Part shown: positions 2,749 to 7,019 of the stretch, piece after piece
Layout: each line of letters starts with the position of its first letter
Position numbering within the stretch: position 1 is the stretch's first letter
DNA from: a virus
Strand: one strand, 5' to 3'
IMG/VR virus record: IMGVR_UViG_3300023545_000090
Location: 1-7,019 of that record
Length of the DNA stretch: 7,019 nucleotides
Notes under the pieces: generated by a model
Database searches by the model: none
What the model was told of the DNA's origin: nothing
What the model saw: only the letters and a program-made list of their open reading frames with translations
Position numbers and translations under genes: made by a program

Positions 2749-2754
2749 TAGATT

Positions 2755-2786
2755 GGGCGCAAGGTTAATTCCTTGCGCCCTTTTTT
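2755..2786 (+). terminator. Rho-independent terminator closing the long + strand transcription unit
   Basis: A perfect 10-bp GC-rich stem pairs GGGCGCAAGG (2755..2764) with CCTTGCGCCC (2771..2780) around the loop TTAATT. It is followed by TTTTTT (2781..2786) and starts 7 nt after the VP2 stop. On the minus strand the same hairpin lies 7 nt after the stop of the antisense ORF, but no U-tract follows it there. Confidence 0.75.
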
Positions 2787-2787
2787 G

Positions 2788-3048
2788 CTATATTTTCTTT
2801 ATACATATTGTACATTCTATTGTTTTTCGTCTTTTATCTGCCAATAATTCTGATTTATAGCAATATATTGCTCCACCTGTTATTTGCTTTGTTCCGTATC
2901 CATCTTCTCCATATTCGCTTTGGATAATGTCTAGGAGATAGTGTACTGCGTTTCTCTTTAGTCTGAATGGATTACCGTTTAAGTATTCTTTTTCAGCTAT
3001 TACTTTGCCTTCTACTGTTTCTTTGTAGTTATAAACTAATTTATACAT
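2788..3048 (-). CDS. Hypothetical 86-aa protein encoded antisense to all other genes
   Basis: The ORF runs from ATG (3046..3048 on the minus strand) to TAG (2788..2790). The translation has globular-like composition (MYKLVYNYKETVEGKVIAEKEYLNGNPFRLKRNAVHYLLDIIQSEYGEDGYG...) and is not the L/V/I/F-rich junk seen in spurious frames. The only + strand ORF touching this interval is the off-frame 2498..2860 artefact. It stays stop-free for 86 codons on an A-rich strand. I recognise no family. Confidence 0.5.
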   Translation of the reverse strand: MYKLVYNYKETVEGKVIAEKEYLNGNPFRLKRNAVHYLLDIIQSEYGEDGYGTKQITGGAIYCYKSELLADKRRKTIECTICIKKI

Positions 3049-3131
3049 AACTATATCTATTTAAATGTTTATTGTAAAAAGACTTTCTTTTTATCTATTG
3101 CTAAGGTACGAATTTTCTCCGACACTACCAA

Positions 3132-3168
3132 TTAAATGAGTTAAATATCTGTTAAATGTACGTTAAAT
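3132..3168. repeat. Four helically phased (G)TTAAAT repeats; a fifth copy lies at 3061..3066
   Basis: TTAAAT occurs at 3132, 3141, 3152 and 3163, with spacings of 9, 11 and 11 bp. The last three copies are preceded by G. The repeats sit 85-120 bp upstream of the antisense ORF start. Confidence 0.6.
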
Positions 3169-3269
3169 AATGCAAACACGTTTTCAGATAATTCTCATCT
3201 AGCATAAATACCTTCCGTAAAAATCTATATTTTTTTATGAAATAATAAAAATTTTATATTATACTATTT

Positions 3270-3340
3270 ATGTATCTGTTTTGTATTTGTGTGCGTGCGC
3301 ATTTTATACGTACGTACACAATTTAACTAAACAGATACAT
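3270..3340. repeat. Nested imperfect palindrome / ssDNA hairpin (12-bp outer stem plus 12-bp inner stem)
   Basis: The outer arms ATGTATCTGTTT (3270..3281) and AAACAGATACAT (3329..3340) are perfect reverse complements. The inner arms TGTGTGCGTGCG (3288..3299) and CGTACGTACACA (3309..3320) pair at 12/12 positions if two G-T wobbles are allowed. The loop is CATTTTATA. Confidence 0.8.
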
Positions 3341-3386
3341 TACTTTGGTTTGTCTGTTAGAAAAACCTTAGTTTATCGCGGAAAAG

Positions 3387-3406
3387 TTTGTAACTGCTTT
3401 GTAACT
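3387..3406 (+). repeat. Tandem direct repeat TTTGTAACT x2 with 11-bp periodicity
   Basis: TTTGTAACT occurs at 3387..3395 and 3398..3406, separated by GC. The perfect palindrome GAAAATTTTC follows at 3417..3426. Confidence 0.6.
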
Positions 3407-3535
3407 ACCTTTTTATGAAAATTTTCTCCCGAAAATTCCACTCTCTTGTTATAGGTAGGCAAAAGTGGGAATACACTTTCCTAATTACTGCACTTTTGTT
3501 CCTTAGTAACTATTTTACTAATAAATGTTAACAAA

Positions 3536-3568
3536 TTTGGTTGTTTCAAAAACATTTCCTTATCTTTG
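3536..3568 (+). promoter_or_regulatory. Candidate Bacteroidota-type promoter (-33 TTTG / -7 TAnnTTTG)
   Basis: TTTG at 3536..3539 and TATCTTTG at 3561..3568 are separated by 21 nt. The ATG of the first small ORF lies 5 nt downstream at 3573, which would imply a very short or absent leader. This is a motif match only. Confidence 0.3.
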
Positions 3569-3572
3569 CACC

Positions 3573-3782
3573 ATGAAAAATGAATTTATAAAAATTATCA
3601 TCAAAGTAGCTTTGTATGCACTTGGATTGATAGCTGCTTATTTTGGTGTCTCTTCTTTGTCATCATGCAGTACGTCTCACAATATAGTTGCAGGTGGTCG
3701 CACTATTATTGTTAGTGTTGATACCACAATTGTTAAACATAACGGCTTTGTCCGTTCTAAAAATTTTAAGCCTTATGAATAA
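3573..3782 (+). CDS. Small putative lipoprotein, 69 aa (predicted mature peptide about 38 aa)
   Basis: The internal ATG at 3573 gives MKNEFIKIIIKVALYALGLIAAYFGVSSLSSC. This has a basic n-region, a hydrophobic core and a lipobox-like L-S-S-C with Cys32 encoded at 3666..3668. The listed 3525 start would add 16 residues upstream of the promoter-like motif. The stop codon region overlaps the next ORF start (ATGAATAA). Confidence 0.55.
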   Translation: MKNEFIKIIIKVALYALGLIAAYFGVSSLSSCSTSHNIVAGGRTIIVSVDTTIVKHNGFVRSKNFKPYE

Positions 3783-3954
3783 AAGTTCGTCTCGCTTTTT
3801 TATCGTTGAAGTTAACGGTGTTCAGTATGTAGTTAAATTTGGTAAGATTGACGAATTTGTTTGTCTGTTTTTGCCTTCTGTTGTTGTTGTTTCTTCTATG
3901 ACAACTTCACCTGTTCAGTGGGAACATGAATACCAATGGTATAAACGTATTTAG
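3775..3954 (+). CDS. Hypothetical 59-aa protein
   Basis: ATG at 3775 overlaps the end of the preceding ORF by 8 nt, a translational-coupling arrangement. The protein contains a hydrophobic stretch, FVCLFLPSVVVVSSM. The upstream part of the listed ORF (3688..3774) is out-of-frame overlap with Leu/Val-rich translation. No family recognised. Confidence 0.4.
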   Translation: MNKSSSRFFIVEVNGVQYVVKFGKIDEFVCLFLPSVVVVSSMTTSPVQWEHEYQWYKRI

Positions 3955-3963
3955 TTCTCGCTT

Positions 3964-4173
3964 ATGACTGCCAAAGATTATTTGACTGCTCTTAAGGTAA
4001 TTCGTGAAATTCAGCGTAAGCAGGCATATTGCACTGGTCAATCTAAACCTTATCTTGCCGATACATTGAAAGAAATTGAATTGTATTGCCCTCTCGATTT
4101 TTCAAAAAGTGGAGGTCGTGTTACAGACAAAACTATTTTAAGTAGTTATGATGGTAATTTATTTAGTTCATAG
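3964..4173 (+). CDS. Hypothetical 69-aa protein
   Basis: ATG lies 9 nt after the previous stop, and the ORF's own stop lies 2 nt before the rep ATG. The translation is non-repetitive and hydrophilic (MTAKDYLTALKVIREIQRKQAYCTGQSKPYLADTLKEIELYC...). No family recognised. Confidence 0.5.
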   Translation: MTAKDYLTALKVIREIQRKQAYCTGQSKPYLADTLKEIELYCPLDFSKSGGRVTDKTILSSYDGNLFSS

Positions 4174-4175
4174 TT

Positions 4176-5729
4176 ATGGCTCTCTTTCCTCGTTGCAATA
4201 ATCCCGTGCTCGTTGCTGGTCGTCATGGTTTGACTCATGTTGGTTGTCACTCTTGTATTCAATGCCGTGTTGCTGCTCAAGAGCATTTATGTAAGATTTT
4301 AGAGGTTGAGGCCTCAAAACATAAATATGTTGAATTTATTACTAATACGTATGACGATTTACATTTGCCCTACATTGATACTTCTTTTCTCTATCCTTTT
4401 GGTTATGCTCTTCGTGTTCCTAATCGGGTTATTAAAAAGTATAATAGGAAAACTAAAAGTTTTTACTTTGTAGAGGATAAAATTTCTAAATCGTTTCAGC
4501 TTACTGATTTTTCTACTATTGATACTGCTCCTATGTTGCGTGATTATTACGCTCGTATTGATAAATATTATAGTAGATTTCCCTCTCGTTCCCGTGGTAT
4601 TCGTAATAATTCTGTTGTTCCTATACTATGGTATGATGATATTCGAAAATATATAGGTCGTTTAAGAAAATGGTTTTTAAAAGAATATGGAGAAACAATT
4701 CGTTACTACATTATTTGCGAGTATGGTTCCCAATCGTTCCGTCCGCATTATCATCTCCTATTATTCCACAACTCGCCTAGAGCGAGAGCAGATTTTAGGG
4801 TTGTTCGAACTTTGCCCCAATCCACCAAAGAAAATCCCCGAGAAATTTGTGTTAAACTCGATTTGGCTGCGTTATGGGTCTACGGTGATACGACTACAAA
4901 GGTTACAGACGGCAACATGCAGGAATATGTTAGTAAGTATCTTACACAACATTCTGACTTCCCTCGAGTGCTTGACAAGTTTCCACAAAGGAGTTTCCAT
5001 TCCATCTTATTGGGTTCAAAGGACAGATCAGAGGTTAAAGAATTATTCAAGGCTAGAGATTTCGAAACACTTACAACTGATTATGTCGTTAACAAGAAGG
5101 GTATTCGAAGATCTGTTTCCATGTCCGATGCGTATTACTCTCAATTTGCCGTTAGATTTACAGGTTCTTCCGTCTTTAATGTTGAGCAAACTTCTACCCT
5201 ATTTCGTTCGGTTGTATACGTTGCCAGACGATTTTTCACTTCCCATGGAGAAATTTATGACGATTCGTCCGTAAGAGAGTTTTTATTGTGGTTGTTTAAA
5301 CCTTCCACTATTGAGTTATATAAATATACATATCAGTTTCGGGCTGTTCATTGGTATGCAGTTACTTTTGCTAAACCGGTTTATAATAGTTCTGATTCTG
5401 TTAATCCTTTAAAGTCGTTGCTTTATGCTGCTCACCATCACTATTCGTTATCCTCCTATTTAGGTTTGGATTTTTATGAATGTCTTAAGTTACGTTTTGA
5501 CTTCATCGCTTGGAAAGATTATCAAAATATGGTTCAGTATTTCCAAAATTTGGAAAATGATAAATTATTTGCTTATGAAAATTATGCAAGTATTTCTTCG
5601 TTTACTGGTACATATGATTTTAATTGTTTAAAAACACGGTCTATTTTTCAGTATCAAGTTCAAAAAGCTAATATGGCTTTTGTTGAAAATATTAAACACC
5701 GTGATGTTGTTGATTCTTATAAAAATTAA
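4176..5729 (+). CDS. VP4: HUH-superfamily rolling-circle replication initiation protein (VP4 / phiX174 gpA-like), 517 aa
   Basis: Motif I is FITNTYD (aa 54-60, nt 4335..4355). Motif II is HYHLLLF (aa 191-197, nt 4746..4766). Motif III is YVSKYLTQ, with two tyrosines in a Y-x-x-x-Y arrangement (aa 251-258, nt 4926..4949). The N-terminus has the Cys cluster C7...C24-x2-C27-x2-C30 common in microvirus Rep proteins. Confidence 0.92.
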   Translation: MALFPRCNNPVLVAGRHGLTHVGCHSCIQCRVAAQEHLCKILEVEASKHKYVEFITNTYDDLHLPYIDTSFLYPFGYALRVPNRVIKKYNRKTKSFYFVEDKISKSFQLTDFSTIDTAPMLRDYYARIDKYYSRFPSRSRGIRNNSVVPILWYDDIRKYIGRLRKWFLKEYGETIRYYIICEYGSQSFRPHYHLLLFHNSPRARADFRVVRTLPQSTKENPREICVKLDLAALWVYGDTTTKVTDGNMQEYVSKYLTQHSDFPRVLDKFPQRSFHSILLGSKDRSEVKELFKARDFETLTTDYVVNKKGIRRSVSMSDAYYSQFAVRFTGSSVFNVEQTSTLFRSVVYVARRFFTSHGEIYDDSSVREFLLWLFKPSTIELYKYTYQFRAVHWYAVTFAKPVYNSSDSVNPLKSLLYAAHHHYSLSSYLGLDFYECLKLRFDFIAWKDYQNMVQYFQNLENDKLFAYENYASISSFTGTYDFNCLKTRSIFQYQVQKANMAFVENIKHRDVVDSYKN

Positions 5730-5734
5730 TTATT

Positions 5735-7019
5735 ATGGCTAATAAAGTTTTAGGTATGCACCGCCTTAAAAATAAGGTAAACCGCAATGCGTTCGATTTG
5801 TCTCACCGTCACATGTTTACCGCCCAAGTTGGCGAATTGTTGCCAGTTTTTACTCAGTGGGTTAATCCTAATGAGACGTTCCAGATTGGGTATAATGGTA
5901 AAACACGTACCGCTGCCCTTAATTCTGATGCGTTTACTCGTATACGTGAAAATATACAGTATTATTTTGTACCTTTTCAGTCTCTTTGGAAGTACTTTGA
6001 GCAACAGGTTAATAATATGACTAAAGGTGACGCCGGACAGAATATTTCTAAGTTTGCAGCTAGTTCAACCGATGCATTTCCTATTTCTACATCACTTCCT
6101 TTCATTTCTTATGTTGATTTGGCCTCTTGGTTAGATCTTATGTATCAGCATTTACTTGGTGCTGTTCATGCTTATTTAACCAAAGAAAGTTTTGAGAATG
6201 CTACTCCAGTTGGCTTTAAAGATTTCTGTTCAAGATCTTCGTTTTATAGTGATGTTTTTATTTGTGACGGTTACCGCTTGGTTCGTGCCGGTAAATTGCT
6301 TATGTCTTTGGGTTATGGTAATTTTGTTAATGTTATTCAGTACGATATTTTTGCTCAAGCTATTAAGTTTTGTTCTGATAACAAAAAATGGGATAAGGCT
6401 TCTTTTGTATCTTCTAAGTACTCCTTAGACCTTACATCTTTTGAGTGTTCTTCTCTTCTTAATAGTCCTAATCTTTCGATTTTGCCTTTGTTGGCTTATC
6501 ATAAGATTTGTAATGACCATTATCGCAATGAAAAGTGGCAACCTTTTGAGCCTTGGACATGTAACATTGATTATTTGTTGCCTACTTCTAACATGAATGC
6601 TAAAAGTTTCATTAGTGAGACCTCTTTTGTTAGTTTACGGTCTTCTATTCTCGATTTGGAAAACTCTAATCTTCCTATCGATTATTTTACTTCCGTTCTT
6701 CCTCGTGCGCAGTATGGAGATGAGTCTGCAGTTTCTGTTGGTTTGAATAATACAGATGCACTTTTCCGTATTAATGATTCTGCTGATGGTTCTAAAGGTG
6801 CAATTTTTGGCGGTAGTTCTTATAGTGCAGGTGATAGTTTAGAAAAAGCCAATTCTGCGCCTGTTCCTGCTCATGATGGTTATGTTGCTCCTGTAAGAAC
6901 TACTTCTACAGGTCTTCGCCTTGTTGGCTTTAGTGGTAATCTTACTGCTGATGCTTCTTTGAAACTTTCTGCTTTGCGTTCTGCTACTGCTCTGCAAAAA
7001 TATAAGGAAATTCAGAATA
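5735..7019 (+). CDS. VP1: Microviridae major capsid protein (VP1 / F-like), N-terminal part; open at the window end and continues at 1..822
   Basis: ATG at 5735 lies 5 nt after the rep stop, and the frame has no stop through 7019. It is probably absent from the ORF track because it lacks a stop inside the window. The N-terminus MANKVLGMHRLKNKVNRNAFDLSHRHMFTAQVGELLPVF carries the N-x-F-D-L-S-H ... T ... G-x-L-x-P capsid signature. LPLLAYHKICNDHYRNEKWQP matches the conserved A-Y-x-x-I-x-N-[DE]-x-Y-R block. The combined product is 683 aa. Confidence 0.92.
   Translation, partial: MANKVLGMHRLKNKVNRNAFDLSHRHMFTAQVGELLPVFTQWVNPNETFQIGYNGKTRTAALNSDAFTRIRENIQYYFVPFQSLWKYFEQQVNNMTKGDAGQNISKFAASSTDAFPISTSLPFISYVDLASWLDLMYQHLLGAVHAYLTKESFENATPVGFKDFCSRSSFYSDVFICDGYRLVRAGKLLMSLGYGNFVNVIQYDIFAQAIKFCSDNKKWDKASFVSSKYSLDLTSFECSSLLNSPNLSILPLLAYHKICNDHYRNEKWQPFEPWTCNIDYLLPTSNMNAKSFISETSFVSLRSSILDLENSNLPIDYFTSVLPRAQYGDESAVSVGLNNTDALFRINDSADGSKGAIFGGSSYSAGDSLEKANSAPVPAHDGYVAPVRTTSTGLRLVGFSGNLTADASLKLSALRSATALQKYKEIQN
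6965..7019. repeat. Terminal redundancy, copy 2 (identical to 1..55)
   Basis: 55/55 identity with the window start. Confidence 0.95.

Follow-up and report, generated by a model that had tools for sequence, protein, structure and literature searches.

The region examined here is an interval of 824 nucleotides (nt; positions 2749-3572) in the genome of a microvirus deposited in IMG/VR as IMGVR_UViG_3300023545_000090. The whole stretch of DNA that was analysed, 7,019 nt in length, is referred to as the window; it is a complete circle, in which nt 1-55 are identical to nt 6965-7019, an assembly overlap of 55 nt that brings the true length to 6,964 nt. A first reading of the letters made without database searches (the sequence-only reading) had pointed to the gap, and it is the sole long stretch without a + strand gene, running from the end of the pilot protein gene VP2 at 2748 to the next credible + strand start, the ATG at 3573. 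Junctions elsewhere are compact (VP4 stop at 5729 and VP1 start at 5735; end of a small open reading frame (ORF) at 1288 and VP2 start at 1291; end of another ORF at 4173 and VP4 start at 4176). All recognisable genes of the window lie on the + strand, excepting an antisense ORF within the gap, and the GC content of the region drops to 25-30%. Whereas the sequence-only reading had proposed a single regulatory, origin or accessory module, the comparison with relatives indicates two modules of opposite evolutionary behaviour: the 3' ~460 nt are retained in all relatives examined and the 5' ~300 nt are not. Its argument that retained non-coding DNA is likely to be functional fits the 3' core, but the 5' part is coding, dispensable cargo. 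The features of the interval are the following, with lengths in base pairs (bp) or amino acids (aa) where given.

2755-2786, + strand: predicted intrinsic terminator of the VP2 transcript, stem GGGCGCAAGG/CCTTGCGCCC, loop TTAATT, then TTTTTT
2788-3048, - strand: antisense accessory gene of 86 aa, orphan protein family, predicted fold beta-beta-alpha-beta-beta-beta
3101-3132, - strand: putative antisense promoter, degenerate in the window, -7 box TACCTTAG at 3101-3108 and -33 box ATTG at 3129-3132
3110-3535, + strand: structured non-coding core, universal in relatives, with indels that exclude a coding frame
3140-3168, + strand: iteron-like GTTAAAT repeats, three copies at 3140, 3151 and 3162 with exact 11-nt spacing
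3229-3256, + strand: nearly invariant A/T block, TTTTTTTATGAAATAATAAAAATTTTA
3270-3340, + strand: hairpin A, outer stem 3270-3281/3329-3340, inner 13-bp stem 3287-3299/3309-3321, loop CATTTTATA at 3300-3308
3344-3376, + strand: possible second promoter, TTTG-N21-TAGCTTTG in relatives, degenerate -7 box TAGTTTAT (3369-3376) in the window
3347-3367, + strand: hairpin B, small and invariant, overlapping the possible second promoter
3420-3437, + strand: hairpin C, stem AATTTTC/GAAAATT with a 4-nt loop, just after the second copy of the 11-mer TTTTTATGAAA
3458-3500, + strand: hairpin D, 10-bp stem GGCAAAAGTG/CACTTTTGTT (3458-3467 paired with 3491-3500), two invariant G·T pairs at the base
3536-3568, + strand: predicted main promoter of the Bacteroidetes type, TTTG-N21-TATCTTTG

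For comparison we used two GenBank relatives (PV067919 from human samples and MG945894 from dog faeces, ~84% identity), 40 further relatives from IMG/VR whose VP4 is 82-92% identical, and 82 further loci from a metagenome motif scan, mostly on contigs of 6.2-7.3 kb. Conservation of the terminator and the promoter was counted in a set of 39 genomes, presence of the antisense gene in 95 genomes with a measurable interval, and covariation in 33 cores and then in 82 distinct cores. The next relatives of the replication protein (Rep) among GenBank phages are only ~25% identical, and these genomes therefore form an isolated clade of unusually large microviruses; among the wider GenBank phage relatives the core could not be traced by sequence past this clade.

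The part of the interval from ~3110 to 3572 (~460 nt) is present in every relative examined. The comparison with relatives that the sequence-only reading had suggested as a check was thus run and none lacks the conserved part, nor was anything host-like detected within the window's own interval, where that reading had raised an insertion of host DNA as a possibility. In bins of 20 nt from 3129 onwards occupancy was 0.72-1.0 and identity 0.66-0.96. Mean nucleotide identity to the window was 88% for the core and 93.7% for hairpin A, as compared to 85.5% for VP4, 82% for VP2 and 75-81% for VP1, so that the core is better conserved than the coding genes. It is not coding, because it carries many 1-nt indels among relatives. 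A hidden protein on either strand was considered and rejected, since the short ORFs shift frame between relatives; the two + strand candidates (3281-3418, 45 aa, and 3415-3531, 38 aa) lose their frames through 1-nt indels scattered across the region, in agreement with the original statement that the gap holds no credible + strand ORF. Neither a tRNA nor an Rfam 15 family reaching its gathering score was found in the interval of the window and 38 relatives; the best match (29.9 bits against a required 85) was to a microRNA hairpin model and reflects hairpin shape only.

The structured repeats that had been noted between terminator and promoter were confirmed. Folding of 3050-3575 as single-stranded DNA gave z = -6.8, and the hairpin within 3255-3355 gave z = -6.2. 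Hairpin A has a predicted stability of -19.9 kcal/mol (z = -6.2) and contains two invariant G·T pairs in its inner stem. Among the 82 distinct cores its pair 3290:3318 is TA in 64, TG in 16 and CG in one, and pair 3275:3335 is TA in 72 and AT in four. Hairpin D is, on sequence comparison, the best supported helix: in the same cores pair 3466:3492 is TA in 63 and CG in 18 with one broken, while pair 3467:3491 is GC in 72 and AT in 10 with none broken. Changes on both sides were seen in seven of the 65 predicted pairs across the 33 cores, a number reached by none of 500 shuffles and to be compared with 0-2 in slid controls. The stem of hairpin C is invariant and covariation uninformative there, and its loop varies (TCCC, TCCT, CCC, TCT). 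As to the strand on which these structures form, the alignment of cores contains 237 G·T cells, those of six invariant G·T pairs among them, which would be A·C mismatches on the - strand, and one-sided changes of pairs go through G·T. Pairing reaches 98.9% on the + strand as opposed to 88.3% if the - strand is assumed, and in each of the 33 genomes it is the + strand that forms the more stable hairpin A.

Repeated sequences accompany the hairpins and cluster in the core. The foot of hairpin A (3321-3327) carries a fourth GTTAAAT copy in inverted orientation; genome-wide there are seven copies with 2.8 expected, and four of these fall within 3140-3327. In relatives the first and the inverted copies are well conserved, copies two and three follow the looser form GTTAAWT, and the spacing of 11+11 is preserved. 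The 11-mer TTTTTATGAAA occurs as exact copies at 3232-3242 and 3410-3420, both within nearly invariant blocks, and GTAACTA is found at two sites only, 3401 and 3506.

Both ends of the interval are marked by predicted transcription signals. The strong terminator of the sequence-only reading is there: at 2755-2780 a 10-bp stem with eight G-C pairs encloses a 6-nt loop and is followed by TTTTTT, and a hairpin of this kind stands directly 3' of VP2 in 39/39 genomes. Paired changes of the stem were found in L037, L032 and L034, the first of which reads GAGCACAAAGA/TCTTTGTGCTC. The hairpin at 2755-2786 is predicted to end + strand transcripts. The terminator scan also marks it on the - strand, where the T-tract is weaker and the tail merely T-rich (AATCTATTAT), and where the hairpin lies 7 nt past the stop codon of the antisense gene. 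At the other end, the promoter-like motif stood up to comparison, although as a promoter of the Bacteroidetes type. The primary-sigma consensus of Bacteroidetes, reportedly described by Bayley and colleagues in 2000, is TTTG at -33 and TAnnTTTG at -7; we required both boxes at a spacing of ~19-21 nt. TTTG-N21-TATCTTTG is the sole full match of this type in the non-coding DNA and was found in all 39 genomes at a fixed position, -35 to -37 from the ATG. Its -7 box stops 4 nt before the ATG at 3573, and the mRNA is therefore predicted to be leaderless or nearly so. Matches to a generic sigma-70 promoter in the window were at chance level (20 with 22 expected); the best of these on the - strand (3078-3050) was rejected as promoter of the antisense gene since its end falls 1 nt short of the ATG and it cannot serve that gene.

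The 5' module behaves very differently. The antisense ORF highlighted by the sequence-only reading is, as judged from its evolution, a real and conserved gene: the frame stays open in diverged relatives and is under purifying selection. Intact orthologues of 83-86 aa were present in six of the first 38 relatives (L001, L002, L008, L009, L020 and L022), with the frame open at 42-67% amino-acid identity and DNA that has diverged much further than that of the remaining genome. The ratio of nonsynonymous to synonymous substitution rates (dN/dS) was 0.10-0.61 in 18 of 21 pairs, synonymous changes being saturated in the remaining pairs. When the same seven genomes were compared, dN of the antisense gene was ~5 times that of VP4 (0.074) and VP2 (0.081), and its median dN/dS was ~0.36 as against 0.12-0.15 for the two others. 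Profile searches recovered 668 clusters at 90% identity, all of ~83-113 aa and all on contigs of at most ~9 kb, and the family is confined to contigs of ~7 kb; an exhaustive HMMER search gave 22 clusters at 50% identity and no distant relatives. The protein has no match in Pfam, PHROGs, NCBIfam, PADLOC or the sequences of the PDB. An AlphaFold2 model (predicted local distance difference test score 87) found no fold match in the PDB (template modelling score below 0.4), and in a viral structure library matched only one family member and uncharacterised phage proteins. The label "predicted type IV restriction endonuclease" given by the Joint Genome Institute to one family member (P0051) was not supported by profile or fold searches and is probably an annotation artefact. 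It should be noted that standard annotation of both GenBank relatives had missed the gene or recorded it only in part.

Of the 95 genomes, 26 have the antisense gene intact, 30 retain only a remnant of it and 39 lack it. With an intact copy in so few genomes it is therefore a dispensable accessory gene, and its rapid evolution gives it, on these comparisons, a moron-like character. All remnants in the 39-genome set are 3' ends adjoining the terminator, and loss has therefore occurred repeatedly by deletion from the promoter side. A full - strand TTTG-N18-22-TAnnTTTG lies upstream of 24 of 31 intact antisense genes; the distance from the end of the -7 box to the ATG is 50-54 nt in 18 of these 24, 201-202 nt in five, where a further small ORF is interposed, and 219 nt in one. 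In the window each box is one mismatch away from the canonical TAnnTTTG and TTTG of the relatives, with TACCTTAG in place of TACCTTTG. The unit has its own promoter (degenerate in the window), a terminator and a presence or absence that varies among close relatives, as expected for a moron-type unit. Five genomes (L002 at 6769-6903 on the - strand, L020 and three metagenome loci) carry an extra ORF of 41-44 aa (MKVMVTIKFINVNGKGQITVKDGQKEDVINMLLAVGYGILKIEQ), placed behind the antisense promoter and ahead of the 86-aa gene, which in these genomes makes what reads as a two-gene antisense operon; the extra ORF has no family match in profile libraries.

The genes outside the interval complete the layout.

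5735 to the window end and on through 1-822, + strand: VP1, major capsid protein, spanning the window ends
ending at 1288, + strand: small ORF before VP2
1291-2748, + strand: VP2, pilot protein
3573-4173, + strand: three small ORFs, including ORF 3964-4173
3573-3782, + strand: first of these, a 69-aa lipoprotein-like protein with a signal peptide and a lipobox-like LSSC (MKNEFIKIIIKVALYALGLIAAYFGVSSLSSC)
4176-5729, + strand: VP4, rolling-circle Rep, matching Pfam REP_ORF2-G2P

The simplest reading of this layout is that the interval is the sole + strand DNA outside the predicted transcription unit that ends at the terminator and begins at the promoter. We incline, with moderate confidence, to the view that it is the control region of the phage, with cis-acting replication signals in the core and an optional passenger gene at its edge. 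One + strand operon would start at the promoter 3536-3568, run around the circle through the small ORFs, VP4, VP1 and VP2, and stop at 2755-2786. The passenger would be an autonomous unit on the opposite strand, made up of the promoter at 3101-3132, the gene from 3048 to 2788 and the shared hairpin as its terminator, and it would be expressible solely from the double-stranded replicative form. Any phage of single-stranded DNA requires a site on the packaged strand for priming the complementary strand, a nick site for Rep, and promoters. The core is a natural place for the priming and nick sites because it is predicted to be untranscribed, is non-coding, strand-biased and rich in hairpins and repeats, and lies directly upstream of the Rep operon. 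In this scheme the conserved hairpins of the core (~410-460 nt) would form on the packaged + strand and act as replication signals in cis, offering host enzymes a site for priming the complementary strand on the incoming single-stranded DNA. Probably the core would also hold the site that Rep recognises and nicks, for which the candidates are hairpin A with its loop CATTTTATA, the three GTTAAAT repeats and their inverted copy flanking it, and the invariant A/T block; the nick site of an HUH Rep is expected to be a unique conserved sequence, often within a hairpin loop that has repeated Rep-binding sites on its flanks. The core shows what is expected of a complementary-strand origin of single-stranded DNA replicons (phiX174, G4, filamentous phages, plasmids), a conserved non-coding structure of the packaged strand, with a strand bias that is clear for hairpin A but not for hairpin D.

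Several observations weigh against this view. Hairpin D is more stable on the + strand in just 14 of 33 genomes, and a + strand bias is expected equally of single-stranded DNA and of + sense RNA. Several helices are invariant, and covariation is silent on them. In relative L025 the core begins only at the A/T block, its first ~120 nt being missing, and an insertion of ~450 nt is tolerated after hairpin D; not all of the core is therefore essential, and ~3110-3228 is dispensable. Sequence homology searches linked no element of the core to priming or to nicking by Rep. As for the passenger, the mismatches in both promoter boxes suggest that the antisense gene may be weakly expressed in the window genome, and any guess at the function of its protein draws entirely on the evolutionary pattern. 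With low confidence we suggest that the protein acts on the host or on competing phages, for instance by inhibiting defence or by superinfection exclusion.

A variant which gives the antisense gene the leading part is distinctly unlikely in our view. The phage would be an ambisense microvirus, and the 86-aa protein a new small effector, expressed solely from the double-stranded replicative form, that either disarms a Bacteroides defence or forms a simple genetic switch with the divergent main promoter ~400 nt away; such a switch would govern a carrier or persistent state. If this were true, the repeated loss and rapid divergence of the gene would reflect an arms race with the hosts.

It is possible, though unlikely, that the 3' half of the core works as RNA, as a structured 5' leader or a small RNA controlling the downstream operon, hairpins C and D then being RNA helices. 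The invariant pairs compatible with G·U and the compensatory changes of hairpin D would suit an RNA helix, and hairpin D gains no stability as + over - strand DNA. A promoter for such an RNA could be the pattern TTTG-N21-TAGCTTTG ~229 nt upstream of the ATG, which is exact in 15 of the 39 genomes and whose -7 box is exact in most cores, but that box is broken in the window, L037, L024, L032 and L026. With both this promoter and the antisense promoter degenerate, the window may represent a low-expression variant with respect to both. An RNA of this kind would moreover leave out hairpin A, the best conserved element, which lies upstream of the putative start; it has neither a terminator nor a match to a known RNA family, and the operon is already served by the fully conserved promoter at 3536-3568.

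Integration through host XerC/XerD, with the core as the attachment (att) site in the form of double-stranded DNA or of a folded single-stranded hairpin as in CTXphi, seems to us very unlikely. According to Krupovic and Forterre, Bacteroidetes proviruses have their dif-like att sites upstream of Rep, in the same interval between VP2 and Rep, and there are inverted second copies that recall CTXphi (PMC3091885). The geometry of hairpin A, two stems of 12-13 bp around an internal loop, would suit such a role, and GTTAAAT equals the 3' end of the XerD arm TTATGTTAAAT, with two copies matching the arm at 9/11 positions. Against this, a scan with conserved VP4 peptides found no prophage of the clade among genomes of 185,579 species. 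The Bacteroidetes-type dif (query taken from the supplement of PMC3025954) had 0 matches, half-site matches were at chance level, and no 28-bp dif-like site with XerC and XerD arms and a 6-bp spacer was found, relaxed matches numbering six with 4.25 expected. Long contigs were considered as integrated forms and rejected: they join foreign DNA inside VP1 or VP4 and not in the core, look chimeric and were treated as chimeric assemblies. That the whole interval might be filler, decaying DNA or an assembly artefact, with the antisense ORF a chance frame, is scarcely credible. Short repeats and promoter-like matches do arise easily in DNA as A/T-rich as this (GC 25-30%), the sigma-70 matches were at chance level, and the antisense cassette is truly decaying in many lineages. 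Yet the core is conserved above the coding genes in all relatives and shows compensatory changes; the antisense frame, whose product has 42-67% amino-acid identity among relatives, stays open, its dN/dS lies below 1 and its family numbers hundreds of members; and the same architecture occurs in independent human and dog assemblies.

A control region with a passenger gene has partial precedents. In the filamentous phages M13, f1 and fd the hairpins of the intergenic region carry the origin of the complementary strand together with the site at which the + strand is nicked and repeats that bind the initiator. The interval resembles that region in being a non-coding stretch of ~500 nt between a terminator and the promoter of the initiator operon, with hairpins on the + strand, and the Rep found here matches REP_ORF2-G2P, the family which includes gene II protein. 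There are differences as well: there is no sequence similarity, the virus family is another one with an icosahedral capsid, no packaging hairpin is expected in a microvirus, and the host is probably a member of Bacteroidetes with different promoter rules. Closer at hand, conserved hairpins with compensatory changes lie upstream of Rep in other, small microviruses, and the analogy with phiX174 has led to the proposal that the complementary strand is primed there (PMC9865509, section 3.8). Our hairpins resemble these "reekeekee" and "roodoodoo" hairpins, the n'/PriA site of phiX174 and the G4 origin in being conserved, intergenic, on the packaged strand and subject to compensatory substitutions. 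The microvirus priming hairpins, however, are single, of 13-64 nt and in short gaps, whereas here at least two covarying hairpins and repeats extend over ~460 nt; there is no sequence similarity between them, and the function is proven only for phiX174 and G4.

The passenger gene shares with the morons of tailed phages its own promoter, a terminator hairpin 7 nt past the stop, variable presence, fast evolution and a position at a module boundary. Unlike them it belongs to a microvirus, whose single-stranded DNA genome measures 7 kb, and lies antisense to every other gene; nor is there any sign of the prophage-stage expression that morons typically show. With the dif-like att sites of Bacteroidetes microvirus proviruses and enterobacterial gokushoviruses the interval has in common that it is non-coding DNA between VP2 and Rep, but neither a 28-bp dif-like site nor an integrated copy was found in this clade. 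None of the element types is new in itself, be it terminator, Bacteroidetes promoter, origin-type hairpin or moron-like gene. What is unusual for a microvirus is that its conserved non-coding region is so large and rich, and that it has an opposite-strand gene forming a large family. Literature searches gave no description of an independently transcribed opposite-strand gene in Microviridae, and a survey of 13,000 genomes found the accessory repertoires of microviruses to be very limited (PMC9239249).

The present case indicates that a microvirus of ~7 kb can carry, and repeatedly lose, an opposite-strand gene which is predicted to be independently transcribed. Gut microviruses are among the most abundant human-associated phages; to our knowledge almost none of those infecting Bacteroidetes can be cultured, and their control elements are unmapped. 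The locus offers a terminator, a fully conserved promoter, two hairpins backed by covariation and phased repeats as testable elements, which are a starting point for synthetic or reporter microviruses of Bacteroides and for locating the replication origins of the lineage, and the antisense slot is a natural insertion site that tolerates cargo.

Some further observations concern the surroundings of these elements. The first gene behind the main promoter, ORF 3573-3782, is the best conserved small gene (88% nucleotide identity) and its family matches are weak (YgdI/YgdR lipoprotein, E = 0.12). TAnnTTTG occurs 18 times in the whole window, with 10.5 expected and none of 200 shuffles reaching 18; 14 of the 18 copies are on the + strand and several lie just upstream of gene starts, such as that at 1286-1293 before VP2. 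These copies could be internal promoters or an effect of composition. The insertion in L025 (3148-3610 of that genome) is richer in G+C, contains several hairpins and carries TCTGAGCGCAACATAATAGACG(C/T)TATGACA twice, at 3159 and 3343; it has no Rfam match and may be a small mobile element or captured DNA. A distant microvirus of 7,071 nt (PQ007434.1, L205), whose Rep is ~26% identical, has an unannotated gap of 827 nt (3640-4466) in the equivalent place, after its pilot gene. Within that gap lie TAnnTTTG boxes, a hairpin resembling a terminator and another, rich in G+C, whose 20 bp pair perfectly (z = -5.2). The architecture thus appears again in the absence of sequence similarity, and large gut microviruses may commonly have long control regions.

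In the long contigs L104 (4647-13124) and L040/L076 (6736-8250) the junction of the phage with Firmicutes-like genes falls within VP4 or VP1. The genes joined in these contigs above 8 kb, which are most likely chimeras of assembly or amplification, include an extracytoplasmic function (ECF) sigma factor next to an unidentified ORF, LytTR regulators and an MMPL-type transporter. Contig L045 (ERZ773195 NODE-1670, 15.6 kb) contains a phage copy lacking ~690 nt of VP1, with its junctions in VP1, between an alpha-galactosidase gene of Bacteroides finegoldii (100% amino-acid identity, JCM 13345) and a ClpB gene. In the reference genome of B. finegoldii the two flanking genes do not adjoin each other, and L045 is probably a chimeric assembly, yet it provides the sole hint of the host genus.

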